Origin: Chloroflexi bacterium HGW-Chloroflexi-4
GTDB lineage: Bacteria > Chloroflexota > Anaerolineae > Anaerolineales > Anaerolineaceae
DNA length: 32,000 nt
NCBI GenBank assembly: GCA_002840715.1
Contig: PHBW01000013.1
Coordinates: 203,445-235,444 of the forward strand
Direction: 5' to 3'
Shown: in pieces, positions 5,301 to 22,472 of the stretch
Position numbering within the stretch: position 1 is the stretch's first letter
Layout: each line of letters starts with the position of its first letter
Notes under the pieces: model-generated
The model's input: the letters and a program-made list of their open reading frames with translations, nothing else
Told to the model about the DNA's origin: nothing
Databases searched by the model: none
Translations under genes and position numbers: made by a program

Positions 5301-6328
5301 TCTAGAACCTCACTTGTCAAATTAGAACCAGCATTAATAGTGATATGTGTTGTTGCAGATTGCGACAACCAAGGTCTTCCATAAAAGAGCGAGATTGTCG
5401 TGGGTCCGTTGTTCAAACCTAAGAATTGTATGGTCTGCACACTTGGGGCGCCAACCAAATTGTACTTTTGATCAAATTCAGTTGTCGTCAGAAGTTGAAG
5501 TTTTGACGCATCATAGTTTTCTACGTCCCATATAAAACCAGTTGAGGGATTTGATTCCAGCAACAGTGGAAAGACTTGCCCTGCTATCACGTCTCCTGAA
5601 ATATCAAGGATAACAGCCCCACCCAACATGTCTATTTGTTCATTTAAGTCGCCAAACATAGTCTGACGAAATTGTTCCAAACCATCTTCGCCTGCCACCA
5701 TAACCTTAAAATTAACAAATCCACTAGTCTGTGACGCCATCGCGACGTCGGTAGTAATTTCTTCATCCTGAATAGTTGAATTTAATTCCGCTTCCACATT
5801 ATTGGATGTACTTGTAATTCCGCCTTCTGAACTGACTTCCTGGTTTGAAACTGGCAAAAGAATTTCAACACTCCAAGCTACTTCATCAGAACCAATTTCA
5901 GAAGTTTGTGTGCCGAATGGGTCTAAAGTTCCAGTCAATGTAGGGGTCGTAGTTAACGTTGTTGTTGAAGTAACCGTCGGTGTATCTGTATCCGTCATGG
6001 TCACCAACGGTGTTTCGGTCGTCAAATTATCAGCTGTTGCAGTTAATTCAAATCCAGAATCGATTGTTTCTGTTACAGTCATGGTCATCGTGGGTGTGAT
6101 CGATTCTCCTGATGACGTTGGTTCAATTTCATCACCTGTAATGGGTAACGCTAATGTTAAAACCGGGTATAAAGCTGGTGTCTTTTGAATGTTAGAAGAA
6201 GAAAAAAGCAATGAAGGCTGCTTGTTTGAAAATGAAAAATAAACACTAAAAACAAGGCTGATGGCCAAGGTATAAGCCGATATCAAAAGTATTATTTTTG
6301 GTGATAATTTTTTCATCGTTTCCTTCAC
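2312..6328 (-). CDS. Secreted or membrane-anchored multidomain papain-family (C1A) cysteine peptidase: signal anchor, Thr-rich region, chagasin-like I42 domain, C1A catalytic domain, Thr/Pro linker, PPC-like domain, six FN3-like repeats
   Basis: 1338-aa ORF with an N-terminal hydrophobic segment (aa ~10-33). C1A motifs are NQGSCGSCWAF (Q395, C401), NHAILLTGW (H547) and LRNSWGTGWGESGYMRI (N565). The chagasin triad is NPSTGFIW, LVGAPS and YGRPW. The RBS GAAGGA lies upstream. Confidence 0.88.
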   Translation of the reverse strand: MKETMKKLSPKIILLISAYTLAISLVFSVYFSFSNKQPSLLFSSSNIQKTPALYPVLTLALPITGDEIEPTSSGESITPTMTMTVTETIDSGFELTATADNLTTETPLVTMTDTDTPTVTSTTTLTTTPTLTGTLDPFGTQTSEIGSDEVAWSVEILLPVSNQEVSSEGGITSTSNNVEAELNSTIQDEEITTDVAMASQTSGFVNFKVMVAGEDGLEQFRQTMFGDLNEQIDMLGGAVILDISGDVIAGQVFPLLLESNPSTGFIWDVENYDASKLQLLTTTEFDQKYNLVGAPSVQTIQFLGLNNGPTTISLFYGRPWLSQSATTHITINAGSNLTSEVLDFTEPVDSSQSTSTTGSGLEVVPPDTQSMGTLPPTFDWRSEDSTNWLTPVRNQGSCGSCWAFATVGVFESAIKIQGGGNVDLSEQYLVSCNNDGYSCNGGWFANNYHFNKFINPQTQAGAVLESAFPYTASNGSCSVPYNHPYKLANWFSIAGDWAIPSVDQIKTVISTYGPVAAAICVGPGFSSYRSGVFTTDEKSSCNGGINHAILLTGWDDATQSWVLRNSWGTGWGESGYMRIRWGISNVGYAANYVVYAPENIATPTTSATVTPSITNTPTSGPSPTITITPTPSNTATQTATPTPTATAVPVANDNIDTPLQIILPSSLSFTTTVDVSNASRAYDDPIFSCTNGMGYKTVWFIYQPLFDGLLNIDTTDSNYDTVLGVWTGARGSLTSLACNDDYSYPSSVASKINNLAVVRDQTYYVEVASYSLIGSARLNLKVTMKIPTPSNFSATDGTSSAGIDLNWDTVPGVDNYQIYRATSLTGTKILLGMVSENTYLDSRATSGDMFVYWVAACSGEVCSDLSNSDSGFRILESPTVTASLGSALDAVILSWTSISNTVYYEIYRTESIDVNPLSNSALAIITKTRSSIPTSYKDKTGLPGKNYYYWVRACRNSICSSLDGKTTVGWKGLSKPGKLNATDNSSLDMILVSWPPVFGASNYEVYRAIGTSGTKELIGTVEESLSYEDNSALPGVTYTYWLKACVEQNCSIFSSATTGWRSLSVPVNLIASDGTSTSSIDLIWDVATDASYYKVYRSTSLTGKKSLINTTSNTSYIDYGAAAGPIYYYWVSSCVDKNCSNYSTSEPGFRLLTSPATMTASDGKYTNYVQLSWPKVRNATQYNVYRASSIDDEKVIIGSTSKTSFSDAGIAAGYIYYYWVTACNNGNCGALYGTDTGWKGLAKLSGLTVNATTDLLSVEPGMTYAAVTWPIQDGATSYILSRSTSSRGSKVIVGLPITNSLIDTVAYSKTYYYFVQSCVDNRCSPYSSAIKFTAPKGY
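2315..3973 (-). other. Six tandem ~90-aa FN3-like protein repeats, each with a conserved Cys pair, aa ~786-1338
   Basis: Recurrent pattern: W..V.GA..Y.(V/I)YR ... G..YYYWV.AC....CS....... G(W/F)(K/R). It is seen at YQIYR, YEIYR, YEVYR, YKVYR, YNVYR and YILSR. The repeats are divergent at DNA level. Confidence 0.7.
3980..4366 (-). other. PPC-like (pre-peptidase C-terminal type) beta-sandwich domain, aa ~655-783
   Basis: The pattern ...YKTVWFIYQP...DTTDSNYDTVLGVWTG...LACNDD...QTYYVEVASY resembles the SVWY..F.P / YDTVL.VY / CNDD / TYYI.V layout of PPC-type domains. Confidence 0.55.
4385..4528 (-). other. Thr/Pro/Ser-rich low-complexity linker, aa ~601-648
   Basis: Translation reads ATPTTSATVTPSITNTPTSGPSPTITITPTPSNTATQTATPTPTATAV. 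Confidence 0.9.
4538..5206 (-). other. Segment encoding the papain-like C1A catalytic domain, aa ~375-597
   Basis: The catalytic Cys codon TGC at 5126-5128 sits within SCGSCW, checked on the DNA. The His and Asn motifs lie downstream. Confidence 0.88.
5363..5623 (-). other. Segment encoding the chagasin-like (peptidase inhibitor I42) domain, aa ~236-322 (approximate bounds)
   Basis: All three I42 signature loops occur in order: NPSTG (nt 5537-5551), VGAPS, and RPW (nt 5369-5377, checked on the DNA as AGA CCT TGG). Confidence 0.75.
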
Positions 6329-6555
6329 TCTAGACTACTAATAAAGTTCTATCTATTTTTATTATAGTAATTATCGGCAGTTCTATCCTTACAACTAGTT
6401 AATAAAAATAATATTTTTGTAAACTTAAAGTTTAAGTAAATTGATGAAAAATAACTAAAAAGATTGAGATTAAACTATGGTTAGTAATGAATCACTTTAT
6501 TTGATTTGACCGTTATAATAAGCCTGTACATCAAACTCCAGTAGAGGCTATGTTA

Positions 6556-8115
6556 ATGTCAGAGTCAACCCCGTCAGAAGCAAATTCCACAAAAACAGTG
6601 CTTTTCTTAAACCCTGCCAAGGGGCTTGTTACTTTTCTAGTGGTTGTTTTGCTCTTATTAGGTTTTGCGGTAAGGTTTATAGATTTCACCGACCTGCCAC
6701 TTGATTTTGCCGCAACCCGCCAACTGCACTCGCTTATCATGGCCAGAGGCATCTACTACCAGATGGATAGCCCGGATACGCTTTCAATGCCGCAAGATAA
6801 ACGTGCATACGGCATTAACACCGGCAACGCCGAAACAAGAATTGAACCCCCCATCATGGAGTATCTTTCAGCAATTACCTATCGTTTGATTGGGAAAGAA
6901 AACATTCTGGTGCCGCGGCTGTATTCGATGCTCTTCTGGGTGCTTGGCGGGATCCCCCTGTTTCTGTTAGCTCGCAAACTTATTAATATCAACGGTGCTT
7001 TGGCATCACTTGCCGCTTATCTTTTTATTCCGTTTGGGGTTTTTGCCAGCCGAAGTTTTCAACCTGATCCATTGATGGTCTTGTGCATTATCTGGGCTTT
7101 ATATTTTCAAATAAGCTGGTCCAAAAGTTCAACCCTCAAAAACGCAATTTTAGCCGGACTTTTTACCGGCATCGCACTTTTCGTGAAAGCGCCATCTGCA
7201 TTTTTTGTGGGTCTTCCTTTTGTTGGTTTGGTTCTTTCAAAAGGGTTCAAAACCTGGATTAAAAATCCGCAAATCTATATCATGGCTGCACTGGCCTTGC
7301 TTCCTGCAATACTTTTTAATGCTTTAAGTGCCACAGTTGGTGGCAATGCTGGTTCCATATTTGGCGCCAGGTTTTTCCCGGATTTATTTATTGACCCGAA
7401 TTGGTATTCCGATTGGCTGCAAACTGCCAAATCCGTCACAGGGTATTTTCCATTGATTCTTGGTGTGCTGGCTATCTTTTTGATTAGGGTGAAAAAGGAT
7501 CGGATTTTCTTTATATGTCTCTGGTTGGGATATGTGCTTTACGGCTTTACATTTGCTTACCACATTTACACGCATAATTATTACCACCTCCCGTTAATTC
7601 CTATCATCGCGTTGGGATTCGGTTACTTTTTTGCAGTCATTTTTGAAAAACTTGAAGGAATAAATACCCAATGGATTTCACGCACTTTCATTGTGTCAGT
7701 CTTTTTAGTTTCACTTGGCATCTGCGTTCAAGTCACCCGTGGAACCTTGATCACTAAAGAATATCGTCATGAAGCCAAATATTGGTCTGACCTTGGTGAA
7801 AAAATTGGTGGCAACGCTTCTGTAATCGCCCTGACCCATGACAATGGTTATCGTATTAGTTATTGGGGATTTGTGAGTCCGAGTCTTTGGCCGACTGCCG
7901 GAGATAGAACTATAAAATCTTTGGTTGGCGCTACAGATCCAGAATTTGTTCAATTATTCAAAGAATTAGCTTCAGGCAAAGACTACTTTTTGGTAACCCT
8001 GGTTGGTGAGTTCGAAGCACAACCTGATCTTCACGATTACTTATTTGCCACTTATCCGTACCACCAAGGGGATGGTTATTACCTTTTTGACCTTCGCCAA
8101 AAACTTTCACAATAG
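6556..8115 (+). CDS. Polytopic membrane glycosyltransferase, GT-C fold (family 39/83-like, ArnT / PMT_2 type)
   Basis: About 11-13 hydrophobic helices precede a soluble ~120-aa C-terminal domain. The layout and N-terminal loop resemble ArnT/PMT-type enzymes. The start is placed at the second in-frame ATG (6556, AGAGG 8 nt upstream); the ORF track starts at 6550. The family call rests on architecture, not on a strict catalytic motif. Confidence 0.6.
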   Translation: MSESTPSEANSTKTVLFLNPAKGLVTFLVVVLLLLGFAVRFIDFTDLPLDFAATRQLHSLIMARGIYYQMDSPDTLSMPQDKRAYGINTGNAETRIEPPIMEYLSAITYRLIGKENILVPRLYSMLFWVLGGIPLFLLARKLININGALASLAAYLFIPFGVFASRSFQPDPLMVLCIIWALYFQISWSKSSTLKNAILAGLFTGIALFVKAPSAFFVGLPFVGLVLSKGFKTWIKNPQIYIMAALALLPAILFNALSATVGGNAGSIFGARFFPDLFIDPNWYSDWLQTAKSVTGYFPLILGVLAIFLIRVKKDRIFFICLWLGYVLYGFTFAYHIYTHNYYHLPLIPIIALGFGYFFAVIFEKLEGINTQWISRTFIVSVFLVSLGICVQVTRGTLITKEYRHEAKYWSDLGEKIGGNASVIALTHDNGYRISYWGFVSPSLWPTAGDRTIKSLVGATDPEFVQLFKELASGKDYFLVTLVGEFEAQPDLHDYLFATYPYHQGDGYYLFDLRQKLSQ

Positions 8116-8164
8116 ATAGTGCTCTTCAGTATGTAAACTGCGACAAAATATGACTAATATTAGA

Positions 8165-8197
8165 AACAAAGTTGGTGACATAATCACCAACTTTGTT
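8165..8197. terminator. Bidirectional hairpin between convergent GT-C and EamA genes
   Basis: aacaaagttggtga (8165-8178) pairs perfectly with tcaccaactttgtt (8184-8197) around a 5-nt loop. The flanks are A/T-rich. Confidence 0.7.
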
Positions 8198-8199
8198 AT

Positions 8200-9180
8200 T
8201 TAATCCAACTCGTGCTCGAAGTTACCAATCTCTTCTTCCAGGCTGACTTTCTCTGGCTTGCGTTCTTTTTGTCCCAACAGCAGTGAATACATACTGCTGC
8301 CCATGGTTAATGCTGCCCCAATCAAAGTCAACCATGAGGGGAACTGCCCCCACAACAGAAAACCCCAGGTTGTATTGATTGGCAGCGACATATATTCAAA
8401 AGGCGCAACAACGGATGCGCTCGCCAGGCTGTATGCCTTGGCGATAAAGAACATGCCGCCAGCCCAGATGAGCGCCAGACCAAAGATGACTAATAAATCC
8501 AGCCAGTTCGGCATCGTCCAGGCATGAAAGAGGAAGGCAATGCTTGGATCAGCATTTGGCATCGGCCCAATGGCGATCACAATGGGCGCCAGAACGCCTG
8601 AGAAACCCAGGTAAACAAAGGTGCTGAAATAACCCATGGTGGCGCTGCTGTCTGTGGTTTGCAGCTTGCGCGTGACCAAGATCGACATCACATAAAACAA
8701 CACGTTCAGCAAAACAAAAATGGATCCAAGGTTGAAATGAGCCGAATCCGGTCGAATGATGATCAAAACACCAATAAAGCCAACCACCAACGCAATCCAT
8801 TTTTTAAGCGCAACTCTTTCGCCTAAAATCATGACAGATAGAAGAGTGATCATCAGTGGAGTTGAGAACTTGATTGCCGAAATCTCGGCTAATGGCAGCG
8901 ACGCCAGCCCCATGAAGTAGGTCGTGTACGACAGAAAAAGAAATGCCCCTCTCAGTATTTCAAGTTTAGGCTGAGTAGTTTTGGGCAGCCCTCGCTGCCC
9001 TTCCATGCGGTAAAAGATCAAAGTGATGGGAATCGCGATCAACGTTCGCAAAATCACAATTTCCAAAATGGGATAGCTGCCGCCCATCTTTTTAACAGTA
9101 ATATCCTGTAAGGAGAAGATCAAAATCCCCAAAACCAGTGCACCGACCCCTAAAATATTCTTATTGAATTTATTCATCAA
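8200..9180 (-). CDS. EamA/DMT-family transporter (10-TM drug/metabolite exporter type)
   Basis: 326 aa with two ~5-TM halves typical of EamA-domain proteins. It starts 3 nt after the AKR stop codon, implying the same operon. Confidence 0.8.
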   Translation of the reverse strand: MMNKFNKNILGVGALVLGILIFSLQDITVKKMGGSYPILEIVILRTLIAIPITLIFYRMEGQRGLPKTTQPKLEILRGAFLFLSYTTYFMGLASLPLAEISAIKFSTPLMITLLSVMILGERVALKKWIALVVGFIGVLIIIRPDSAHFNLGSIFVLLNVLFYVMSILVTRKLQTTDSSATMGYFSTFVYLGFSGVLAPIVIAIGPMPNADPSIAFLFHAWTMPNWLDLLVIFGLALIWAGGMFFIAKAYSLASASVVAPFEYMSLPINTTWGFLLWGQFPSWLTLIGAALTMGSSMYSLLLGQKERKPEKVSLEEEIGNFEHELD

Positions 9181-10782: not shown

Positions 10783-11472
10783 ATGAAAAAGATTTTAGTA
10801 ATAGATGATGACACATTAATGCGGCGAAGCATGGCTTTCAATCTCGAACAAGCCGGCTATAAAGCTTTTACGGCAGCCAATGCGGAAGATGGGCTTGAAA
10901 TCGTCCGAAAAACCCCGCCCGATCTGGTCTTGCTCGATATCGGTCTGCCAGAGATGGATGGTCTTGATGCCATAAAGCAGATCAAATCCATTTCGCCGAT
11001 TCCGGTCATTTTCGTCACCGCCCGTCGCCGCGAGTTGGACGAAGTGGTAGGTCTCGAACTTGGCGCCGACGATTACATCACCAAACCTTTTGACAACGAC
11101 GTGTTGCTTGCCCATATTAAAGCCGTACTGCGCCGTTCGATACCGGCAGCCGAGATTACAACTTCAAATCCTATTCAAGCGGGTGCCCTGTATATGGACC
11201 CCATCACCCATACCGCCAAATTGGCAGATAAAAACCTCGAGTTGAGTCCTCGCGAATTTGACCTGCTCTACCTGCTCGCCCGAGACCGCAATCAGGTGAA
11301 GTCAACCACAGAGATTCTTGCCCAGGTTTGGGGTGCGGAGTATTATGGTGAACCACAGGTGGTTTATGTGCACATCCGTTGGTTGCGCCAAAAACTTGAG
11401 CTTGATCCAAATCACCCAAAATTGATTCTCACCGTACGCGGCGTGGGGTATAAATTTTCTGGAGGCGAATAA
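10783..11472 (+). CDS. OmpR/PhoB-family response regulator (receiver + winged-helix DNA-binding domain)
   Basis: MKKILVIDDD, LVLLDIGLPEMDG and ITKPF form the receiver. SPREFDLLYLL...VRGVGYKF forms the winged helix. Confidence 0.9.
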   Translation: MKKILVIDDDTLMRRSMAFNLEQAGYKAFTAANAEDGLEIVRKTPPDLVLLDIGLPEMDGLDAIKQIKSISPIPVIFVTARRRELDEVVGLELGADDYITKPFDNDVLLAHIKAVLRRSIPAAEITTSNPIQAGALYMDPITHTAKLADKNLELSPREFDLLYLLARDRNQVKSTTEILAQVWGAEYYGEPQVVYVHIRWLRQKLELDPNHPKLILTVRGVGYKFSGGE

Positions 11473-12905
11473 TGTTTCGCACCATTCAGCGCAGAATGCT
11501 TTTTGGTCAGATCATCGTTTTATTGCTCGTCATGCCGTTAATGGGCGTTCTTTTGATCTTTGGCATTGAGAGCAGCTTCTTGATTCCCAAATTTGCCAAT
11601 ACACTGCTGGGGGATGCCAGACTGCTGGCTGAGATCAGCAGTGCCGAATATGAATTGTGGGGCAATCCCTTCCTCATCGAAAAGTTGATCTCCCGTGTTC
11701 AACTGGATCCCTCAATAAAAGTCATGTTTCTAGATTCTGCCGGCAGACCTCTATACTCCACCGATCCCGCGGATTACACAAATAACATAACAATCAATTC
11801 AACTGGCATCATAAGTGCACAAAGCGGGCAGGAAATAGCCCTGACCTCCTATTCCATCATCCGCATCAAAGACACCTATGTAGATGTTTACGAACCGGTT
11901 TTGGATTCAAGTTTTTCAGTCATCGGCATTGTCAGATTGACCTACCGCGTGGAATCACTGTATCAAATTTTTGATGAATTGCGTTGGCAGATCGCTGTCA
12001 TTGTATTAATCGGACTCATCCTCAGTGGTTTCATCAGCGCCTGGTTGGCCATGCGCATTAGCCGGCCGATCACCAAAGTGACCAACGCCATTTATGATCT
12101 GGCTGTTGGCAGAAGTCACATACCACTTGAAGAAACCGGTCCCGAAGAATTGCAATCTCAGGCGCAAGCTGTCAATTTTCTGGTAGCCCAGTTGGATACA
12201 CACGAAAAATCGAGACGCCAGTTGCTGGCAAACCTGGTACACGAGTTGGGTCGCCCGCTGGGTTCCATCCGTTCTGCCATCCATGCGCTTGAAACTGGCG
12301 CTGACAAAGATCCAGCGTTATACAAAGACCTCACCACCGGTATGGATGCCGAAACCATGCGCCTTCAACGCCTGCTAAACGATCTTTCGCACCTTTATGA
12401 CCAATCAGTAGGTGCGCTGGAACTTGACGTTCAACCCGTCAATATTCACAAGTGGCTGCCGGGAGTATTGCGGCCGTGGCAGGTTTTAGCCCAGGATAAA
12501 GAGCTCACCTGGATTGAAAACCTTGTTCCCGACAGTTCATTGGTCAAAATGGATCCCAACCGCATGGCTCAGGTGGTGGGCAATTTGTTAAGCAACGCCG
12601 TAAAATATACCAAACCAGGCGGCAGCATCAATGTTTCAACGTTAATAATGGAGGACAAATTCCATCTCACCATTCAAGACAATGGCGTTGGCATTCAACC
12701 TGATGAAATTAAAAAAGTATTCCTTCCCTTCTTCAGGGGTGAACAGGGCCGCCGCATCAAACAAGGCATGGGGCTTGGACTTTCCATTGCCAGAGATTTG
12801 ACCAAAGCCCATGGCGGCACGCTTGATGTCACCTCTCAACCAAACGGCGGCAGCACCTTCACTGTTCGATTGCCAATCGACTTAGAGGAGCCAGGAAACG
12901 AATAA
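11472..12905 (+). CDS. Membrane sensor histidine kinase (2 TM, extracytoplasmic domain, HAMP, HisKA, HATPase_c)
   Basis: TAATG overlap with the regulator gene. Motifs present: H-box LVHELGRPL, N-box LLSNAVKYT, G1 DNGVGI and G2 GMGLGLSI. Confidence 0.88.
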   Translation: MFRTIQRRMLFGQIIVLLLVMPLMGVLLIFGIESSFLIPKFANTLLGDARLLAEISSAEYELWGNPFLIEKLISRVQLDPSIKVMFLDSAGRPLYSTDPADYTNNITINSTGIISAQSGQEIALTSYSIIRIKDTYVDVYEPVLDSSFSVIGIVRLTYRVESLYQIFDELRWQIAVIVLIGLILSGFISAWLAMRISRPITKVTNAIYDLAVGRSHIPLEETGPEELQSQAQAVNFLVAQLDTHEKSRRQLLANLVHELGRPLGSIRSAIHALETGADKDPALYKDLTTGMDAETMRLQRLLNDLSHLYDQSVGALELDVQPVNIHKWLPGVLRPWQVLAQDKELTWIENLVPDSSLVKMDPNRMAQVVGNLLSNAVKYTKPGGSINVSTLIMEDKFHLTIQDNGVGIQPDEIKKVFLPFFRGEQGRRIKQGMGLGLSIARDLTKAHGGTLDVTSQPNGGSTFTVRLPIDLEEPGNE

Positions 12906-12944
12906 CTCCTTTCAAAGAATAGACCCTTAATTCCAAAGTTTTGC

Positions 12945-12978
12945 AAAAGAACCTTCTCACCACTAAGGTTCTTTTTTT
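12945..12978 (+). terminator. Rho-independent terminator after the kinase gene
   Basis: The stem gaacctt (12949-12955) pairs with aaggttc (12965-12971) and is extended by A/T pairs. A T7 run at 12972-12978 follows. Confidence 0.6.
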
Positions 12979-12981
12979 ACG

Positions 12982-13001
12982 CCTTAAGGTCACCTTAAGG
13001 T
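12982..13001 (+). promoter_or_regulatory. Tandem direct repeat CCTTAAGGT-n2-CCTTAAGGT overlapping the putative -35 of htrA (candidate response-regulator binding site)
   Basis: CCTTAAGGT occurs at 12982-12990 and 12993-13001, 11 bp apart. A third TAAGGT half-site lies at 12964-12969, 21 bp upstream. The candidate -10 TATGAT at 13013-13018 has a poor -35 (TCACCT) 17 nt upstream. Confidence 0.4.
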
Positions 13002-13045
13002 TGCTATAACCTTATGATAAAGACAAACCAACATGCAAATGGTAT

Positions 13046-13068
13046 CCTCCAATCAACATTATTGGAGG
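13046..13068 (+). promoter_or_regulatory. SD-sequestering hairpin in the htrA 5' UTR (RNA-thermometer-like)
   Basis: CCUCCAAU (13046-13053) pairs perfectly with AUUGGAGG (13061-13068) around a 7-nt loop. The 3' arm contains the only Shine-Dalgarno (GGAGG), 7 nt before ATG 13076. Confidence 0.45.
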
Positions 13069-13075
13069 TATAAAC

Positions 13076-14746
13076 ATGTCCACACGAAAAAAAACTTCAC
13101 TTTCCATCATTCTCATTTTGGCGTTTTCGCTTTCTGCTTGCGGCATCATAACGCCTGATGCCACCCAGGCTGTTCCGCCCCAGGTTGAACAGACCGAATT
13201 GCCACAAGAAGAAACTACAACAACGAACAATTCGGCACCTGTGCTTGAATCGCTTTCAGCTTACCAGGCAGCACTCGAAGAAATCTACAACAAGGTCAAT
13301 CCTTCGGTTGTCAACATTCAAGTGATGCAAAGAGTTCAAATCTCAAATAACACTAACCTTGAGAACCCTTTTGCCAATATCCCTGGTTTTGATTTCTATT
13401 TTGGTTCTCCATCCACACCTGACCAGCAAGAATCAACTCAGGTTAAACAAGCCCTCGGTTCAGGTTTTGTTTGGGACGAAGAAGGTTACATCGTGACAAA
13501 TAACCATGTTGTCGCAAACGCTGACAGGATACAAGTCAAATTCTCGGATGGCACGATTGCCAATGCCAAAGTTGTTGGCACAGACGTTAACAGTGATTTG
13601 GCTGTCATCCAATTGGTTGATTTTTCTGGAGAGCTTAATCCTATTACATCATCCGATTCGACCGAGGTTAGAGTTGGGCAAGTGGCGATCGCCATTGGTA
13701 ACCCCTACGGACTGGAAAACACAATGACTGTCGGAATTGTCAGTGCTGTAGGTCGATCGCTGCCGACAGATCAAACCTCTGCAACCTCTTATACCATCCC
13801 GGATATCATCCAGACCGATGCCCCCATCAACCCAGGTAATTCTGGCGGTGTGCTGGTCAATGATCAAGGTGAACTAATTGGTGTAACGGCAGCCATCGAA
13901 TCCTCCACCGGTTCAAATGCCGGCATCGGCTTTGCCATTCCATCCAGTACGGTCAACAAGGTGATACCCGCTTTGATTAAAACAGGCAAATATGAACACC
14001 CATACCTCGGCCTCACCGGCACTACATTGACCCCTGACCTGACAGCGACCATGGATCTGGAATCCGATTTGCGTGGTGTTTTGGTGATCGCAGTTGCGAA
14101 CGGTGGCCCTGCAGATAAAGCCGGATTGATAGGCAACAGCAAAGAAGTCAACCTCAATGGCATTACAACTAATGTCGGTGGAGACATCATCACTGCCATC
14201 GATGAACAATCGCTCAATTCAATGGAAGATTTGATCTCTTATCTAGCAAGTCATACCGAAGTCGGGGATTCAGTTAAACTCACCATCCTGCGTGATGGCG
14301 TTGAAAAAACCCTTGAAGCTACTGTGATTGCCCGCCCAGGCAGCATTGAGCAGCCTGCCATCAAGAGCAATCCATCATCACAAGACGATGTTTCATCTTT
14401 AGCATGGATGGGAATCTCCGTTACTCCACTTACCTCTGCTCTTGCACAAGAAATGGGATTACCCCAAGAACAAAAAGGCCTTCTGTTGCAGCAAGTTGTC
14501 TCAGGCGGACCGGCTGATCAGGCTGGATTAATCGGCAGTTATAAACCAGTCATTATTAATGGTAAACGCGTCTTAATTGGCGGTGATATTATTACAGCCA
14601 TTGAAGACCAAGCAGTCGCTGCTATCGAAGATCTACAGGCAGTGATTTCCACCAGGTTGTCCGGCGACACCGTGTCATTGACACTTATCCGCAACGGCCA
14701 GGAATTATCAATAGCGGTTACTCTGGCAGAAAAACCGGCCAGTTAA
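13076..14746 (+). CDS. htrA: HtrA/DegP-family serine endopeptidase (S1C) lipoprotein with two PDZ domains
   Basis: Lipobox LSACG. Triad contexts are TNNHVV (His), DLAVIQ (Asp) and GNSGGVL (Ser). Two PDZ-like segments are present (GVLVIAV..GGPADKAGL and GLLLQQV..GGPADQAGL). Confidence 0.92.
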   Translation: MSTRKKTSLSIILILAFSLSACGIITPDATQAVPPQVEQTELPQEETTTTNNSAPVLESLSAYQAALEEIYNKVNPSVVNIQVMQRVQISNNTNLENPFANIPGFDFYFGSPSTPDQQESTQVKQALGSGFVWDEEGYIVTNNHVVANADRIQVKFSDGTIANAKVVGTDVNSDLAVIQLVDFSGELNPITSSDSTEVRVGQVAIAIGNPYGLENTMTVGIVSAVGRSLPTDQTSATSYTIPDIIQTDAPINPGNSGGVLVNDQGELIGVTAAIESSTGSNAGIGFAIPSSTVNKVIPALIKTGKYEHPYLGLTGTTLTPDLTATMDLESDLRGVLVIAVANGGPADKAGLIGNSKEVNLNGITTNVGGDIITAIDEQSLNSMEDLISYLASHTEVGDSVKLTILRDGVEKTLEATVIARPGSIEQPAIKSNPSSQDDVSSLAWMGISVTPLTSALAQEMGLPQEQKGLLLQQVVSGGPADQAGLIGSYKPVIINGKRVLIGGDIITAIEDQAVAAIEDLQAVISTRLSGDTVSLTLIRNGQELSIAVTLAEKPAS

Positions 14747-14824: not shown

Positions 14825-15640
14825 TCAATTTATTGGTTTTTTGGGTAATCGTTTGATCAAAAACATCATTATCAACACCAGATAGTACCCAAAATAGGCG
14901 ATAACCATTGTTAGTGAAGGTTCACTCTTGTATCCAACCATGGCTTTAAGCAGTTGTCCCAGAGTGGATTGCTCTGACAGGATGGGATTAAGATTCCAAA
15001 CAGGCTCAATCACTGCCGGAACCCAGCCCAATTCATTCAACTCATGGACTGCCATGCCAACCAGTCCAGCCGCAAACAATGCCAAAAGAATATTTGTTAT
15101 TTGAAAGAAGCGGTTAAGACTTAATTTCCTTGTCGAGGAAAAAACAAGCATCCCCACCACAATGGCGGTGATAATACCCAAAAAAGCTCCCAAATAAGTT
15201 TGTCCTGGGTCTATTTCAAGCCTGATTGCCAGTAAAAATAAAGCCAGTTCAATCCCCTCACGCACCACGGCTAAAAATGCCAAACCGAATAATGCTCCTG
15301 AGCTCTGTCTTGCAAGTGACTGTTTTACATTCTGCTCTATCCGATCATTCATCGCGCCAGATTGTTTGCGCACCCAAAAAACCATCCAGGTTAAGATTCC
15401 CGCTGCCAGCAGCATGGCCGCTGCTTCAAAAATCTCTTCACCTCGACCTTCAAATTCCAATCCAATCTGATTAAGAACAAGTGCCGCGATAAAACTTACC
15501 AGTGCACCACAAAAAACTCCCAACCAGACATTCCGACCAAGTTGTTTCTGATCGATTTTTACCAATACACCGAGAACTATTCCTATTACAAGCGCTGCTT
15601 CCAATCCCTCACGTAACGCTAATAAAAAACCAGGCAACAT
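14825..15640 (-). CDS. FTR1/EfeU-family high-affinity iron permease
   Basis: Two REXXE motifs are present (REGLE aa 10-14, REGIE aa 127-131) with ~7 TM segments. AGGAG lies 10 nt upstream of the ATG. Confidence 0.85.
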   Translation of the reverse strand: MLPGFLLALREGLEAALVIGIVLGVLVKIDQKQLGRNVWLGVFCGALVSFIAALVLNQIGLEFEGRGEEIFEAAAMLLAAGILTWMVFWVRKQSGAMNDRIEQNVKQSLARQSSGALFGLAFLAVVREGIELALFLLAIRLEIDPGQTYLGAFLGIITAIVVGMLVFSSTRKLSLNRFFQITNILLALFAAGLVGMAVHELNELGWVPAVIEPVWNLNPILSEQSTLGQLLKAMVGYKSEPSLTMVIAYFGYYLVLIMMFLIKRLPKKPIN

Positions 15641-15911
15641 AATTATTTCGCTCCTAATTAAGACAATATTTATCTTATTTTATCATATTATTGATTTCAT
15701 TAATTAATGCAGACAAGGCAATTTAAAAATCAAACGCATTCATCGAAATTTAACTTCAAGTTTATTGACAGACGATGGATTTTGAACCAATAATAATAAT
15801 ATTAATGTTTTTAAGAATTACTGTTACCTTCATTTAGACACCATCGAATAATGGTAATTCCTATTTATATGCAGCTATTGAGAAATTGTGTTGTTTATCA
15901 GGTAGGTCTTT

Positions 15912-16967
15912 ATGAAGAAAAAGATGGTGATAAGGTTCTTGATCATATTAATTTTTCTCTCCGGTTTTCTGGGTGCCTGCCAAACACCAGCCGCTCCCAC
16001 CCCCAAATCTTCATTAACAAAAATTGTATTCATTCCCAAGTTAACTGGTGTTGGTTTTTTCGAATCTGGCGGTAAAGGTGCACTGGAAATGGGTGAACAA
16101 TTGGGCATCACTGTAACTTATGATGGCCCGAACGCTCCCAGTGTGAATGGCCAGATTGAATACATACAAAAATATATGGACGCCGATTACGATGCCATCG
16201 TGATCTCGTCTTTATCTCCAGATGGTTTGTGCGAAATATTGACCGAAGCCATGGAAAATGGGACGGTGGTTCTAACATGGGATTCAGATGTAAACCCGGA
16301 GTGCCGTTTATATTATATTAATCAAGGTACTCCCGTTCAGTTGGGAAGAATGTTGGTCGGAATGGTCGCAGACCAAATGAACAACCCCAAATCATCACAG
16401 AATGTTGCCTTCTTTTACTCAAGCCCAACAGTTACTGACCAGAATCAATGGGTAAGTGTAGCAAAAGCAATCATTGCAACAGAGTATCCTTCATGGAATA
16501 TCGTGACCACCCAGTATGGATACCAGAATGTCGAAAAATCACTTGAAACAGCCACGAATATTTTTACAGCATACCCCGATTTGGATGCCATCATTTGCCC
16601 TGATGCCAATGCTCTCCCTGCCGCTGCTGAGGCTGCCGAAAAACTTGGCATTGATGAAAAAGTGATAATTACCGGGTTTTCAACACCCAACGTTATGCGC
16701 CCGTTTGTAAAAAATGGAACCGTCAATCGTTTTGGTTTATGGGATGTGGTTGAACAAGGAAAACTCTCCATCTTTATCGCGAATGAGCTGATTAATGGTC
16801 GCAAGTTTTCCATTGGCGAAAAAGTTGAAGTCTCTGGAATAGGAACTGTTGTAATTTCATCCAACAAAGTACAAGGCTATGAATATGAAAGCGTTGGAAA
16901 TGGAATAATTTTGCTGCCTGACCGTGTCATTTTTAACAATAGCAATATTGATGATTTTGATTTCTAA
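15912..16967 (+). CDS. lsrB: LsrB-family periplasmic-binding-fold lipoprotein (autoinducer-2 / furanosyl-signal binding protein type)
   Basis: Lipobox LSGFLGAC. Long colinear motif agreement with enterobacterial LsrB as I recall it: [137 protein letters not shown]. Confidence 0.85.
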
Positions 16968-16976
16968 CGAGAGTTT

Positions 16977-18824
16977 ATGATTAAAAGACTAAAAGAACAG
17001 CAATATAACCTAACGATTATTTTTGGCAATTTCATCATGCTGGTGCTTTTAGTATTGGTGGCGATTTCCGGTATTGCAGGGGTGAAACAAGTTGCCTATA
17101 GTAATTCCATTGCGCTGGAAAGCCGGCGTGAGATGGCAGATATTCGTACCATGCAACTCCTGATCAAGAACATGTCCAACAGTCAGATAAACTACATTTA
17201 TAATGGCGATCTTGTCGATGCCCAGGCATTCAAAAATTCGATAGCCGCATTATTTGAACTGAGATCACAAATTAGAAAAACCATAGAAACAGAAAATGAC
17301 CGTTTGAATTTTAATATTATCAATAGTCAAACCGACCAATATATTACGAATTTCACCACAAAAATCATTCCCGCTCGTGAAAATAATAATGACGAACTGC
17401 TTATGTCTTTAAAAGAAGAATCAGATGAGTTAATTAATCAAATCGATCCGTTTATTCAAAACATGCTTGCAGACTACGAAAATAGAGCTCTGGACGCATA
17501 TCAAAATGCATTGGAAGCCAAGAATCAAACCATCGCACTTGGGATTTCATTATCACTGATACTGGGTTTGCTTGGCGGAGTAACTGCAATCGTAATCTCT
17601 CAAAATTTGGCAAAATACACCAGACAAATACTACATACAACAGAACAATTAAAAAAATCGGAATCAGCTCTGAAAGAAAACGAACGATTCTTGAACAACA
17701 TCGTTGAAAATTTACCAAATATGGTATTCGTTAAAGATGCACCTGATTTACGTTACATCATGTTTAATCGTACCGGTGAAGAGATACTGGGTTTTAAACC
17801 TGGATATGCCAATGGAAAGACGGATTTCGATTTCTTTCCAAAAAAGCTGGCAGAGTTTTATCGCACCAAAGATCTTGAAGTTCTTGCGTTAAAACAATTA
17901 TTGGATATTCCCGAGGAATTCGTTAAAACTAAAGATAATAAAATTAGAACATTTCACACCAAAAAAATTCCGATCCTGAATGAACAAGGAAATCCACAAT
18001 TCTTATTGGGAATTTCTGAGGATATCACTGAAAGAAAATTGGCTGAAGATAAAATCCGATTGATGAATTCTGAACTCGAAATGCGCGTTGAACAACGAAC
18101 AGCCCAATTGGAATCTAGTAACAAAGAACTTGAAGCTTTTTCGTATTCCATTTCTCATGACCTGCGGGCACCATTGCGGGCAATCAATGGTTATGCTCAA
18201 CTGATCAAAGAAGATCATGCTGAGAGTCTTTCACCCATTGCTGTAAATTACTTTGATTTAATCCGCAAAAATGCCATCATTATGGGCCAATTAGTGGATG
18301 ATTTGCTCAATTTTTCGCGTTTGGGAAGGCTTGCACTTACAAAAACTAGGGTTGATCCAGTTTCAATGGTCAAAAGTATTATTGAAAGTATCCAACCGGA
18401 ATTGGTAAATAGAAAGGTAAAGTTTATCATTGGTGAATTACCAGAATGTGATGCTGACCCTGCTTTTCTTAAGCAGGTATTTGTAAATCTGATTTCGAAC
18501 GGTGTTAAATTTTCAAAGAAACGCGATGAATCTATTGTTGAAATTGGTTTTGCTCAATCCGATCAAGGCATCTCCCAGCAAAATATATCCCCACAACCTG
18601 TAACTTACTTTGTTCGAGACAACGGTATTGGCTTTGATATGAAATATTACGATAAGCTGTTTGGCGTGTTTCAAAGATTGCATACAGATAATTCTTATGA
18701 AGGCACAGGGGTTGGACTGGCAATCGTTTCACGTATTGTCACCAAGCACGGCGGCCGAATTTGGGCTGAGTCATCACTTGACAACGGTTCTACATTTTTC
18801 TTCACGCTGGAAAGTGAATCTTAA
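16977..18824 (+). CDS. Orphan membrane sensor histidine kinase: TM, ~150-aa helical extracytoplasmic domain, TM, PAS, HisKA, HATPase_c (no receiver domain)
   Basis: The gene starts 9 nt after the lsrB-like stop. TM1 spans aa ~13-35 and TM2 aa ~185-207. The PAS core is NIVENLPNMVFVKD...LLGISEDITERK. The H-box is FSYSISHDLRAPL (H394), the N-box NLISNGVKFS, and the G boxes DNGIGF and GTGVGLAI. Confidence 0.88.
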   Translation: MIKRLKEQQYNLTIIFGNFIMLVLLVLVAISGIAGVKQVAYSNSIALESRREMADIRTMQLLIKNMSNSQINYIYNGDLVDAQAFKNSIAALFELRSQIRKTIETENDRLNFNIINSQTDQYITNFTTKIIPARENNNDELLMSLKEESDELINQIDPFIQNMLADYENRALDAYQNALEAKNQTIALGISLSLILGLLGGVTAIVISQNLAKYTRQILHTTEQLKKSESALKENERFLNNIVENLPNMVFVKDAPDLRYIMFNRTGEEILGFKPGYANGKTDFDFFPKKLAEFYRTKDLEVLALKQLLDIPEEFVKTKDNKIRTFHTKKIPILNEQGNPQFLLGISEDITERKLAEDKIRLMNSELEMRVEQRTAQLESSNKELEAFSYSISHDLRAPLRAINGYAQLIKEDHAESLSPIAVNYFDLIRKNAIIMGQLVDDLLNFSRLGRLALTKTRVDPVSMVKSIIESIQPELVNRKVKFIIGELPECDADPAFLKQVFVNLISNGVKFSKKRDESIVEIGFAQSDQGISQQNISPQPVTYFVRDNGIGFDMKYYDKLFGVFQRLHTDNSYEGTGVGLAIVSRIVTKHGGRIWAESSLDNGSTFFFTLESES

Positions 18825-18880
18825 GCATACTATTTTAGATATTTCCGACTTAGTTGATTTATATTGGTTTTTTCAAATAA

Positions 18881-18919
18881 ACACTCTGGGTTCATGAGCA
18901 TGAGAGTGTATTTTTTTTT
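18881..18919 (+). terminator. Rho-independent terminator after the kinase gene
   Basis: acactct (18881-18887) pairs with agagtgt (18903-18909), followed by a T9 run at 18911-18919. Confidence 0.7.
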
Positions 18920-18959
18920 CAATTAAGGTATGATTTACCTATATTGGAAGGAGCATCAA

Positions 18960-19817
18960 ATGATTAACAAAGATGCAATTCGAAAAGTCACCAATTCCAT
19001 TGAACCCACACAAGTTATGGAAGGAGCCGGTGTCAGGCTGCGCCGTTCAATTGCCACCCGCCAATTGGATTATCTCGATCCTTTCCTGCTCTTCGACCAC
19101 TTCGGTTCACACGACCCGGAGGACTACATGGCCGGCTTTCCAATGCATCCTCACCGCGGAATTGAAACAGTCACCTATATGCAAGCTGGGTCAGTGCGCC
19201 ACACCGACAGCCTGGGTAATTCGGGCGTCATCTCAACCGGCGACATTCAGTGGATGACCGCTGGCGGCGGCATCATGCACGAAGAGATGCCCCAGCAGGG
19301 TGCGGATGGTCACATGGAAGGGTTTCAACTCTGGGTGAATCTGCCCGCAAAATTAAAAATGAGCCCTCCGCGCTATCAAGAAATCCTGGCTGGCACAATT
19401 CCAGAAGCTGCACCGCAGCCGGGCATTCGTGTGAAAGTGATTGCCGGTGAATATGCCGGTCTGCACGGACCCGTTACAGAAATCGCTGCCGACCCCACAT
19501 ATCTTGATGTCGCCCTTGAACCCGGGGTCACATTTACAACTGTGATAACTTCCGATCACACCGCTTTTGCCTATCTTTACTTCGGCGATGGCGATTTTGG
19601 CGGCGTTTTTGCATCATCACCCAGGCTTCTTATCTTTGGTGAAGGCAATAGCATTCAAATTAAAGCCGATAAAATTGGAGCTAAATTTTTATTGATATCT
19701 GGCAAGCCATTGGGTGAACCCATTGCGCGATACGGTCCATTTGTCATGAACACCCAGCAAGAAATCATGGAAGCCCTTAAGGATCTTCGCGAAGGCACCT
19801 TTATTAAACACAGCTAA
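18960..19817 (+). CDS. Pirin-family (bicupin) protein
   Basis: LDPFLLFDHFG, GFPMHPHRGIETVTYM and GDIQWMTAGGGIMHEE are present. The start is set at ATG 18960 with GGAAGGAG upstream; the ORF track starts at 18930. Confidence 0.9.
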   Translation: MINKDAIRKVTNSIEPTQVMEGAGVRLRRSIATRQLDYLDPFLLFDHFGSHDPEDYMAGFPMHPHRGIETVTYMQAGSVRHTDSLGNSGVISTGDIQWMTAGGGIMHEEMPQQGADGHMEGFQLWVNLPAKLKMSPPRYQEILAGTIPEAAPQPGIRVKVIAGEYAGLHGPVTEIAADPTYLDVALEPGVTFTTVITSDHTAFAYLYFGDGDFGGVFASSPRLLIFGEGNSIQIKADKIGAKFLLISGKPLGEPIARYGPFVMNTQQEIMEALKDLREGTFIKHS

Positions 19818-21102: not shown

Positions 21103-21332
21103 TTAATCTTTCTGTTTTTGCGGGGTTGATCCATTAATTTCGTCAATAATATCATGTTTAGACATCTTTGATGTTACTCCCTCTATCAACCAATCATCAG
21201 ATCCGAGTTTTAAGTTGCACACCCGCCTTTCATTAGAATTTTATTGAGCCTATTGAAAAATAATTAAATACCCTTAAAATGATATTAATTGTCTATATTA
21301 TGCCTTGATTCACGACTTATATGGAGGTGGAT

Positions 21333-22472
21333 ATGAAACAATTATCAAAGAAAATTTTTGTGGCTGTCATAATTTTTGCTTTTGCACTTACATCCTGCAA
21401 CCTTCCCAAACCCAACGCTGCTATCAATACACCCAATGCTGATGTTATTCAATCCGCAATTGCCACTGAAGCTCCAATTATTGCAGAAACTGCTGCTCCG
21501 ATCCAAGCCACCGAAGCGCCCACTGCTGAAGTTGTGCCGACGGAACCCCCTCAAAATATTGAAACAGTGGTTCCGATTGTTCATCTGATAAACCCATCAG
21601 ATACGGTCTGGAACCCGGATCAAATCACCACAGACTGCAACACAGGCGTCCGGATGCCGGCAGGCACAACGCAAGTGATCATTTCAGGTTGTGATTACTG
21701 GAACCGCGAAATGATTGAACGCCCGGCTGACAGTGCCACCGGCACCTATGTGCCATCGCTGGATATTATTTGGTCACAGGCTGGCAAACTCGAACCTTGG
21801 ATATTTTTGAAAATAAATGTAACCAATCTGGCAGACGCCCCCAAAACCCTCAAAGCGGGTTTTGAATTGGACCCCGATCTCGACAGCCGCGGCGAATTTC
21901 TGCTGACCTCAAATCTGCCCACTTCAACCACCTGGAGCACAGACGGCGTCCAAGTATGGCAGGATACCAATCAGGATAACGGTGGCACAACCGCTTTCCG
22001 ATATGATCAAAACACGGGTGATGGCTACGAAACGCTGCTCTTTGACAGCGGCGTAGGGGATGATGCCGACCTGGCCTGGAGCCGCATATCGCCTAAAAAC
22101 GCAAATAATATTGAGTTCGCGTTTAAAGCTGCCGTGCTGCCGAATCAAAAGGTGTTTGGTTGGTGGTCATGGGTTGGGCTGCAAGAGCTCACTGCCGATA
22201 AATTCGAGCTCGTGGATCGTGCAGACGAAAGCCAAACCTGGAATATCGATAATTCCTGCTCGTGGATCTTTGGCACCAAACCAAAACCGGACCAGTTGAT
22301 AAATCTATGCGCAGTTGCAGAACCGACGCCTACACCTGCTCCGACCACGCCAGCAGGATCTCCCTGCGTCGTTAAACCCTGCCGTTTCCTGCAGTACTTT
22401 GATACAGAAACTTGTTCTTGTAAACCCTTCATCATCTTTATCCCGACGCCAACACCAATCATCATTTATTAG
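21333..22472 (+). CDS. Secreted lipoprotein of unknown function with a Thr/Pro- and Cys-rich C-terminus
   Basis: Signal peptide plus lipobox (FALTSC). GGAGG lies 5 nt upstream of ATG 21333. I recognise no family motif. Confidence 0.6.
   Translation: MKQLSKKIFVAVIIFAFALTSCNLPKPNAAINTPNADVIQSAIATEAPIIAETAAPIQATEAPTAEVVPTEPPQNIETVVPIVHLINPSDTVWNPDQITTDCNTGVRMPAGTTQVIISGCDYWNREMIERPADSATGTYVPSLDIIWSQAGKLEPWIFLKINVTNLADAPKTLKAGFELDPDLDSRGEFLLTSNLPTSTTWSTDGVQVWQDTNQDNGGTTAFRYDQNTGDGYETLLFDSGVGDDADLAWSRISPKNANNIEFAFKAAVLPNQKVFGWWSWVGLQELTADKFELVDRADESQTWNIDNSCSWIFGTKPKPDQLINLCAVAEPTPTPAPTTPAGSPCVVKPCRFLQYFDTETCSCKPFIIFIPTPTPIIIY

Follow-up and report, generated by a model that had tools for sequence, protein, structure and literature searches.

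The window, as we call the whole 32,000-nucleotide (nt) stretch of DNA analysed here, comes from Chloroflexi bacterium HGW-Chloroflexi-4 (contig PHBW01000013.1, positions 203,445 to 235,444). Near its middle lie two adjacent genes that are the subject of this report: lsrB, encoding a lipoprotein of the LsrB type, a receptor family for autoinducer 2 (AI-2), and a gene for a membrane-bound sensor histidine kinase. The lsrB open reading frame (ORF) occupies 15912-16967 on the + strand and encodes 351 amino acids (aa), while the kinase ORF (16977-18824, + strand, 615 aa) follows in the same reading frame. Both ORFs, and the 9-nt gap between them, lie where they had been placed by the original prediction, which was made from the letters of the DNA alone and which saw in the pair a possible AI-2 sensing pathway. 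In the public record the binding protein is identical to PKN99176.1 (Chloroflexi bacterium HGW-Chloroflexi-4), annotated as 'autoinducer 2 ABC transporter substrate-binding protein LsrB' (ABC, ATP-binding cassette), and the kinase is PKN99177.1, annotated as a 'hypothetical protein'. These labels hide the likely functional link between the two. The features of the locus, including the two transmembrane (TM) segments of the kinase, are as follows.

15765-15794, + strand: sigma-70-like promoter candidate, TTGACA, 18-nt spacer, AATAAT (11 of 12 consensus matches)
15912-15980, + strand: lipoprotein signal peptide of LsrB (read from the translation)
15912-16967, + strand: lsrB, for an LsrB-type AI-2 (R-THMF) binding protein (NF011937, PDB matches, six contact residues)
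16968-16976, + strand: spacer from the lsrB stop to the kinase ATG, 9 nt, CGAGAGTTT
16977-18824, + strand: orphan membrane sensor histidine kinase, 615 aa
17010-17084, + strand: kinase TM1, aa ~12-36, hydrophobic stretch LTIIFGNFIMLVLLVLVAISGIAGV (part of the continuous model helix 12-76)
17085-17528, + strand: extracytoplasmic four-helix-bundle sensor domain, aa 37-184, proposed LsrB docking module (AlphaFold, Foldseek, profile)
17529-17597, + strand: kinase TM2, aa ~185-207, hydrophobic stretch TIALGISLSLILGLLGGVTAIVI (within model helix 139-234)
17688-18038, + strand: cytoplasmic PAS domain, aa 238-354 (Pfam PAS_4 1.2e-16, PAS 5e-07)
18132-18326, + strand: HisKA dimerisation/phospho-acceptor domain with H394 (Pfam HisKA 7.3e-13)
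18456-18815, + strand: HATPase_c catalytic domain (Pfam 1.7e-21)
18881-18919, + strand: intrinsic-terminator-like hairpin, 7-bp stem ACACTCT/AGAGTGT (18881-18909), then T9 (RNA fold)

The 9-nt spacer implies that lsrB and the kinase gene are co-transcribed, and possibly that their translation is coupled as well. Upstream of lsrB is an AT-rich intergenic region of 271 nt, where the number of sigma-70-like sites equals the expectation from shuffling and the site at 15765-15794 is a consensus match only. An Rfam scan of 15500-19100 at E<=1 returned no known RNA element upstream of or inside the pair. Downstream of the kinase gene, the hairpin and T9 tract at 18881-18919, previously described as a strong terminator, are indeed present, but the adjective was too generous: direct RNA folding gives a free energy (dG) of -10.3 kcal/mol with a z of -1.75, a moderate stability, and a scan for consensus terminators did not list the site. 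A terminator at this position is plausible.

Identity of the binding protein and architecture of the kinase

The binding protein carries the lipobox L20-G21-A22-C23, as read from the translation, and all of the LsrB homologues in the related loci L001-L005 (listed below) have a Cys after a small residue at this position. Solved LsrB structures match the whole mature protein colinearly (3EJW, 6e-134; 5GTA; 1TJY, 1e-131), with end-to-end alignments to the structures from Sinorhizobium, Salmonella/E. coli, Yersinia and Bacillus at E 1e-124 to 1e-134, which bears out the proposed colinearity with enterobacterial LsrB. The window protein scores 527.1 bits against the LsrB equivalog model (NCBIfam NF011937, cut-off 384) and fails the rhamnose-binding (RhaS) model, with 217 bits against a cut-off of 342.

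Functional AI-2 receptors have been defined, in the part of Pereira et al. 2009 that is quoted in PMC6166536, by an identity of at least 60% to S. Typhimurium LsrB, by the residues that contact AI-2 in Salmonella LsrB (K35, D116, D166, Q167, P220 and A222), and by the presence in the genome of orthologues of lsrA, C, D, K, R, F and G. The window LsrB is 61.5% identical to Salmonella LsrB (1TJY) over 314 aligned residues, which is above the 60% value by a small margin. When the residue offset between the Salmonella and window proteins is taken from the full-length chain 5GTA, the counterparts of the six contact residues are K43, D124, D176, Q177, P230 and A232. The structure-guided alignment thus confirms that all six are kept and decides in favour of D124 where the original prediction had hesitated between D124 and D126. 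The same six residues are found in all LsrB copies from L001-L005, and in 25 of the 25 members of the kinase-linked clade described below, with one A-to-S change. Judged by every sequence criterion for LsrB that was tested, the binding protein is a member of this family.

In the kinase, Pfam places PAS_4 at aa 243-354, HisKA at 386-450 and HATPase_c at 494-613, and found no receiver domain. The phospho-acceptor H394 lies in the motif SHDLRAPL and is invariant in 17 family members; the PAS domain is also well conserved in the kinase family alignment. An AlphaFold model of the N-terminal 235 residues, made with the 17-sequence family alignment, has a pLDDT of 86.7, with values mostly of 91-97 in the sensor stretch. 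Its helices comprise TM1 (~12-36) and four bundle helices (37-76, 79-102, 106-135 and 139-184), after which comes TM2. Together, Pfam and the model confirm the predicted order of TM1, helical sensor, TM2, PAS, HisKA (H394) and HATPase_c. According to the model, the kinase is a two-TM protein whose sensor, a four-helix bundle of ~150 aa, lies on the outer side of the membrane, so that an extracytoplasmic domain between two TM helices is available for docking.

The top match of the modelled sensor in a Foldseek search of the PDB was 5xsj_L, the LytS sensor of XylFII-LytS (target-normalised TM-score 0.88, root-mean-square deviation 1.6 A), followed by the Vc1313 chemoreceptor domain, the Adeh_2942 and HK9 kinase sensors, and Tar. 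Target-normalised TM-scores to the LytS, Vc1313, Adeh_2942 and HK9 sensors were 0.78-0.88, and sequence identity to the LytS sensor is 13%. When 1.84 billion representative proteins were searched with a profile built from just the sensor, 93 relatives came out at E<=1e-3, of which the nearest outside the kinase clade are methyl-accepting chemotaxis proteins with 4HB_MCP_1/TarH, HAMP and MCPsignal domains. The family profile matches 4HB_MCP_1/TarH chemoreceptors at E 1e-36 to 1e-17, precomputed PF12729 matches exist in six relatives, and the HBM model on the window kinase stays below threshold (E 0.007, 16 bits vs 29.8). The earlier guess of a 4HB_MCP/TarH-like sensor therefore holds because of the fold matches and the profile homology to chemoreceptors, although the window copy does not reach the Pfam gathering score. 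The invariant polar residues of the sensor form three motifs, G77-D78-(P)-V80..Q83.F85, N111.N113-I-I..Q118 and Q155.D157-P-F-I.N162-M.A165.

Among the chemoreceptor relatives of the sensor, P0258 and P0259 (loci L041 and L043) are encoded in che clusters (CheW, CheA, CheD, CheY, CheB, CheR). No LsrB gene is visible beside either of them, on contigs that are both cut near the upstream side, and these loci therefore give no evidence of a general LsrB link for the wider sensor family.

Recurrence of the pair and its genomic surroundings

About 20 full-length relatives of the kinase, 46-100% identical to it, were found on Anaerolineae-type contigs, and in every neighbourhood that could be read a gene for a Peripla_BP_4 protein of 349-359 aa lies directly upstream. 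This conserved association of a binding-protein gene with a signalling gene is seen at ten distinct loci, namely the window and nine further Chloroflexi/Anaerolineae loci, which are listed here with the identity of their kinases to that of the window.

L001/L006: kinase 70% identical, syntenic with the window
L007: kinase 70% identical
L044: kinase variant with an inserted PocR domain
L002: kinase 57% identical, flanks unrelated
L003 and a 51-kb ENA contig: kinase 52% identical, flanks unrelated
L045: kinase 52% identical
L004/L005: kinase 46% identical, flanks unrelated
L042: kinase 34% identical overall, sensor 47%; the upstream fragment is an LsrB C-terminus

For eight further kinase/LsrB id pairs the longest contigs are of equal size, and a metagenome scan with the sensor-only alignment yielded just two loci, of which one was known before. 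The window, L001, L007 and L044 share synteny at this locus, whereas the flanking genes are wholly different in L002, L003 and L004. Since the pair is kept at nine further loci, with kinase identity falling to 34-46% and with unrelated flanks, chance can be ruled out as the cause of the adjacency of lsrB and the kinase gene on these sequence comparisons. Of the seven loci measured together, six have 9 nt between the lsrB stop and the kinase start (the window, L001, L002 from its upstream ATG, L003, L007 and L044); the spacing in L045 is likewise 9 nt, and that in L004 is 11 nt. The called kinase start of L002 (9935-10000) is probably too far downstream, and an in-frame ATG 9 nt past the lsrB stop restores both the kinase N-terminus (MFKN...) and the 9-nt spacing.

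What stays constant across these loci is the combination of LsrB with the four-helix bundle, while the cytoplasmic part varies, by the PocR insertion in L044 and by a diverged transmitter in L042. This is the pattern expected if the bundle works with LsrB. Within the family, sequence identity is higher among the kinase-linked LsrBs (72-87%) than among their kinases (34-79%). The L044 kinase (6001-8469, P0007) has 822 aa, with PocR lying between PAS and HisKA and with the sensor and the 9-nt gap retained. The L042 kinase (1-2133, P0257) is the most divergent of the LsrB-linked kinases, and with 47% identity in the sensor against 34% for the whole protein, its sensor is better conserved than its transmitter.

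The neighbourhoods of other LsrBs are of a different kind. In 30 of 30 proteobacterial LsrB loci, drawn from species-representative genomes, lsrB is surrounded by lsrK, lsrR, lsrA, lsrC, lsrD and lsrG, with lsrF in all but three. The LsrBs next nearest to the window protein (60-64% identity, with at least one cluster named Chloroflexota) are encoded in complete lsr operons at three loci, so that Chloroflexota keep canonical lsr operons too. The original prediction had asked how often LsrB genes are followed by a kinase gene and not by lsrACD: among the loci examined, the pair recurs at nine further ones, and outside the kinase-linked clade a full lsr operon was present at 33 of 33 LsrB loci. 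A neighbour-joining tree of 130 LsrBs groups the kinase-linked proteins in one clade, which has 25 members, none of them transporter-linked, and the rewiring therefore happened once, within or near Chloroflexota. Five positions are specific to this clade (A75, K87, E212, N216 and A220). At four of them the other LsrBs strongly conserve E, N, Q and T, and position 216 is more variable (A in 59%). From this alignment, the five positions are candidate contact sites.

In the three lsr operons nearest to the clade (L038, L039 and L040), the gene order is an lsrF-like DeoC, lsrA, lsrC, lsrD, lsrB, lsrK, a small cupin in the place of the enterobacterial lsrG, and lsrR. The called lsrA product of L038 and L040 (827-828 aa) includes a Sugar-bind (LsrR-like) domain at its N-terminus, as the result either of a fusion or of a merged gene call.

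The absence of the canonical partners from the window, noted in the original prediction, is borne out by tblastn with the complete Serratia fonticola lsr gene set, which had been validated beforehand, and by Pfam scans of all large ORFs, neither of which found lsrA, C, D, K, R, F or G in the 32 kb. Nor did a search of the kinase-linked loci and their flanks find lsr genes within +/-10 kb. The accompanying lsr genes that form the third part of the definition of Pereira et al. are thus missing within the window and within +/-10 kb.

The kinase also has, as had been claimed, neither a receiver domain nor an adjacent response regulator. The sole response regulator in the window is of the OmpR type (10783-11472) and abuts a HAMP kinase of its own (11472-12905). 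It belongs to a row on the + strand (10783-14746) made up of the OmpR-type regulator, the HAMP histidine kinase and an HtrA-like PDZ serine protease. L001 and L044 keep this row upstream of the pair, L002, L003 and L004 lack it, and it looks like a separate envelope-stress module rather than a partner of the LsrB-linked kinase. As a candidate partner, the OmpR-type regulator, which lies 4.4 kb upstream, was rejected on two grounds: it comes with a kinase of its own, and the non-syntenic loci L002, L003 and L004 do not have it.

Elsewhere in the window, 2312-6328 (- strand) encodes a 1338-aa protein in which an Inhibitor_I42 domain (chagasin-type, aa 249-328) directly precedes a Peptidase_C1 domain (papain-family, aa 374-593), with a GH85_C-like region in addition; it is unusual for a protease to be fused to an inhibitor of its own family. 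The gene at 993-2186 (+ strand) is for an electron-transfer flavoprotein (ETF) alpha subunit that has an N-terminal 4Fe-4S ferredoxin domain (Fer4, aa 3-24) before the ETF domains. Pfam assigned no family to the ORFs at 21321-22472 (+ strand, 383 aa) and 27290-28684 (- strand, 464 aa). The first of these proteins has a lipoprotein-like N-terminus and a Cys-rich C-terminus, and L001 has a 384-aa gene, likewise without a Pfam family, at the equivalent position.

The pair as a probable AI-2 sensor and the alternatives

We estimate a probability of about 0.6 that lsrB and the kinase gene form one operon for a binding-protein-dependent sensor kinase of the non-borated form of AI-2, R-THMF. This reading is based on the family membership of both proteins, the conservation of the ligand pocket, the topology and fold of the sensor, a tight pairing confined to one clade, and the lack of lsr transport genes within +/-10 kb. 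AI-2 as the ligand, the contact of LsrB with the sensor, the direction of regulation, and the identity of the regulator and regulon are what we infer. Taken together, these genomic comparisons suggest that Anaerolineae with the pair may sense AI-2 at the cell surface and not by import.

In such a system, LsrB would be exported and stay attached by its lipid anchor to the outside of the cytoplasmic membrane, where it would bind AI-2 in the same pocket as enterobacterial LsrB. The liganded (closed) form would then dock on the four-helix bundle of the kinase dimer. Docking could shift TM2 and the helical linker, with the signal passing via the PAS domain to the DHp domain that carries H394, and the outcome would be an altered autophosphorylation at H394, or an altered kinase or phosphatase activity. 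The phosphoryl group would be handed to a response regulator encoded elsewhere. A bolder version, to which we give somewhat less than even odds, is that these Anaerolineae lack an Lsr importer, and that the pair is a dedicated surface receptor for non-borated AI-2 and a second, independently assembled LuxPQ-like quorum-sensing input. If this were true, the docking domain of a LuxPQ-like input would be chemoreceptor-derived and its receptor would come from the other AI-2 receptor family, and uncultured Chloroflexi of digesters and groundwater would have a signalling, not a scavenging, response to the AI-2 of their neighbours.

Several points weigh against an AI-2 sensing role for the pair. The Foldseek E-values are weak (at least 0.013), as is usual for helical bundles, and the 4HB_MCP_1 model on the window kinase is far below threshold (E 4.5, 7.2 bits vs 27). 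With clade-specific changes at only five positions, the kinase-linked LsrBs show no visible loss of the permease-docking surface, and a transporter for the window LsrB may be encoded elsewhere in the genome. No cognate response regulator adjoins the kinase in any of the pair loci read. The cytoplasmic PAS domain could be the real input of the kinase, and the contact between kinase and LsrB is a presumed one.

An obvious alternative is a dual role, in which LsrB feeds an Lsr-type ABC importer encoded elsewhere and also serves a kinase that induces uptake or catabolism genes, so that sensing would be for scavenging and not for quorum sensing. There are models for this, since ChvE serves both a sugar transporter and VirA, and XylFII-LytS-YesN induces xylFGH. 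It would fit that kinase-linked and transporter-linked LsrBs are separated by only five positions, so that the permease-docking surface may be intact, that complete lsr operons exist in Chloroflexota, and that transport genes are frequent targets of the binding-protein kinases known so far (Table 3 of PMC8050422). However, no kinase-linked locus has an lsr gene within +/-10 kb, and the Chloroflexota lsr operons seen here carry a clearly distinct lsrB of their own, with 60-64% identity. A dual role, which overlaps the favoured reading at the sensing step, is in our view unlikely but far from negligible. The pair could also be a nutrient sensor like XylFII-LytS if its ligand were not AI-2 but a related furanose or a pentose-derived molecule. 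LsrB does belong to the sugar-binding Peripla_BP_4 family, with rhamnose-binding proteins as the next-best matches; five clade-specific substitutions mark the kinase-linked LsrBs, and pocket plasticity of LsrB has been reported in Clostridia, to go by the title of Torcato 2019. We see only a slim chance of a different ligand, given that the six AI-2 contact residues are kept across the clade, that identity to Salmonella LsrB is above 60%, and that the LsrB equivalog cut-off is passed where the RhaS model fails.

The functional link between the two proteins, and the origin of the genes, can be doubted as well. The kinase might sense something else through its own bundle or its PAS domain, with LsrB as a co-transcribed neighbour only. 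The 4HB domains of many chemoreceptors bind small ligands directly (Tar and Vc1313, both among the fold matches, are examples), the PAS domain is well conserved, and no LsrB is visible beside the distant chemoreceptor relatives of the sensor. Such independence is hard to reconcile with a pairing that outlives full turnover of the flanks and replacement or expansion of the cytoplasmic module, with a sensor type that is met, at a similar level, only together with LsrB, and with a conserved 9-nt spacing; we judge it quite improbable. As for origin, the kinase gene had been described as AT-rich, and with a G+C of 0.373 it is indeed the lowest of the 24 large ORFs computed (window, 0.45). The idea that went with this observation, a recent horizontal acquisition of the pair in the HGW-Chloroflexi-4 genome, could also appeal to the 56-64% identity of its LsrB to proteobacterial LsrBs across phyla, a value suggesting that lsrB was transferred at some time in the distant past. 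But the G+C of the pair tracks that of each host genome, from 0.37 to 0.50 across loci, four genomes (the window, L001, L007 and L044) are syntenic at the locus, and a similarly low G+C is seen in other window genes (2312-6328 at 0.41 and 6550-8115 at 0.43). Because of this composition and synteny, a recent acquisition was rejected as very improbable.

Whether AI-2 is a signal in bacteria outside Vibrio, or just a metabolite that they import, is a matter of continuing debate. LsrB, the one well-established AI-2 receptor of bacteria other than Vibrio, is presented only as part of an importer in a 2026 review (PMC12834153). A conserved LsrB wired to a histidine kinase would give R-THMF a direct route of signal transduction, and the short list of binding-protein-dependent kinases would gain a defined ligand. 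It also suggests that a chemoreceptor-type four-helix bundle may have been reused as a docking platform for a binding protein. The system is tractable, with two proteins, soluble domains that are easy to express, and a known ligand. When applied to the kinase-linked clade, the automatically given name 'AI-2 ABC transporter substrate-binding protein' probably misleads.

Comparison with known systems

By sequence, pocket and identity the window protein is an LsrB like that of the canonical Lsr system (lsrKR / lsrACDBFG), which differs in having the genes for LsrA/C/D, LsrK, LsrR and LsrF/G that are missing from the window and from +/-10 kb of the kinase-linked loci. A detached lsrB has been described before. 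In Treponema primitia and T. azotonutricium, lsrB lies beside sensor kinase/response regulator pairs, an arrangement read as signalling and not transport (Torcato et al. 2019, as cited in PMC8050422). As far as that citation goes, the likeness is an lsrB separated from its transporter and placed beside two-component genes; the differences are the phylum and the response regulator, which is present there and not adjacent here. In the searchable literature we found no experimental characterisation of either the Treponema or the Chloroflexi case, and among the papers on LsrB with Chloroflexi, Anaerolinea or an orphan kinase none describes the pair, the clade or the sensor family. The statement in the original prediction that no characterisation of such a system was known is thus fair for experiments, but the idea of signalling was already in print for Treponema, to judge from the same citation. 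The Chloroflexi pair is real, conserved and uncharacterised, but it is neither a new category nor entirely unanticipated.

Kinases that depend on a binding protein are an established kind, with LuxPQ, TorTS, XylFII-LytS, HptAS and ChvE-VirA as examples (PMC8050422). A related case is found in E. coli, where LsrB with R-THMF signals through the four-helix-bundle (TarH) domain of Tsr (PMC8050422), although the contact itself is only inferred. The nearest sequence relatives of the window sensor are such chemoreceptor 4HB domains. The output in E. coli, however, is a chemoreceptor and not a two-component kinase, and the lsrB gene there is part of the lsr transport operon, its product acting in transport as well as in chemotaxis.

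The original prediction had suggested that the pair could follow the logic of LuxP-LuxQ in Vibrio. The likeness is that an AI-2-binding Peripla_BP_4 protein is dedicated to a membrane kinase, with adjacent genes and without import. LuxP, however, binds borated S-THMF and belongs to a subfamily other than LsrB, and LuxQ is a hybrid kinase with a receiver domain, which the window kinase does not have. The sensor of LuxQ has a dCache-like tandem PAS fold (PMC8050422), whereas that of the window kinase is all-helical. Against the NCBIfam LuxQ model, the window kinase scores 81 bits (cut-off 1200), and the match covers the kinase core only.

A closer parallel is offered by XylFII-LytS(-YesN) of Clostridium beijerinckii (PDB 5XSJ), in which, as here, a Peripla_BP_4 gene lies beside the gene for a sensor kinase and not beside a transporter. 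XylFII is a detectable homologue of the window LsrB (5xsj_X, E 4.7e-06), and LytS is likewise a two-TM kinase with a four-helix bundle as its extracytoplasmic domain, the best structural match of the window sensor. XylFII docks sideways on the 4HB domain of LytS, and the ligand drives formation of a 2:2 complex (PMC8050422). The two systems differ in that the ligand of XylFII is D-xylose and not AI-2, and in that XylFII-LytS controls the xylFGH transporter operon (PMC8050422), whereas the window kinase has a PAS-HisKA transmitter without an adjacent regulator. By analogy, XylFII-LytS is the closest mechanistic precedent for the pair, and LuxPQ is further away because the sensor of LuxQ is dCache-like.

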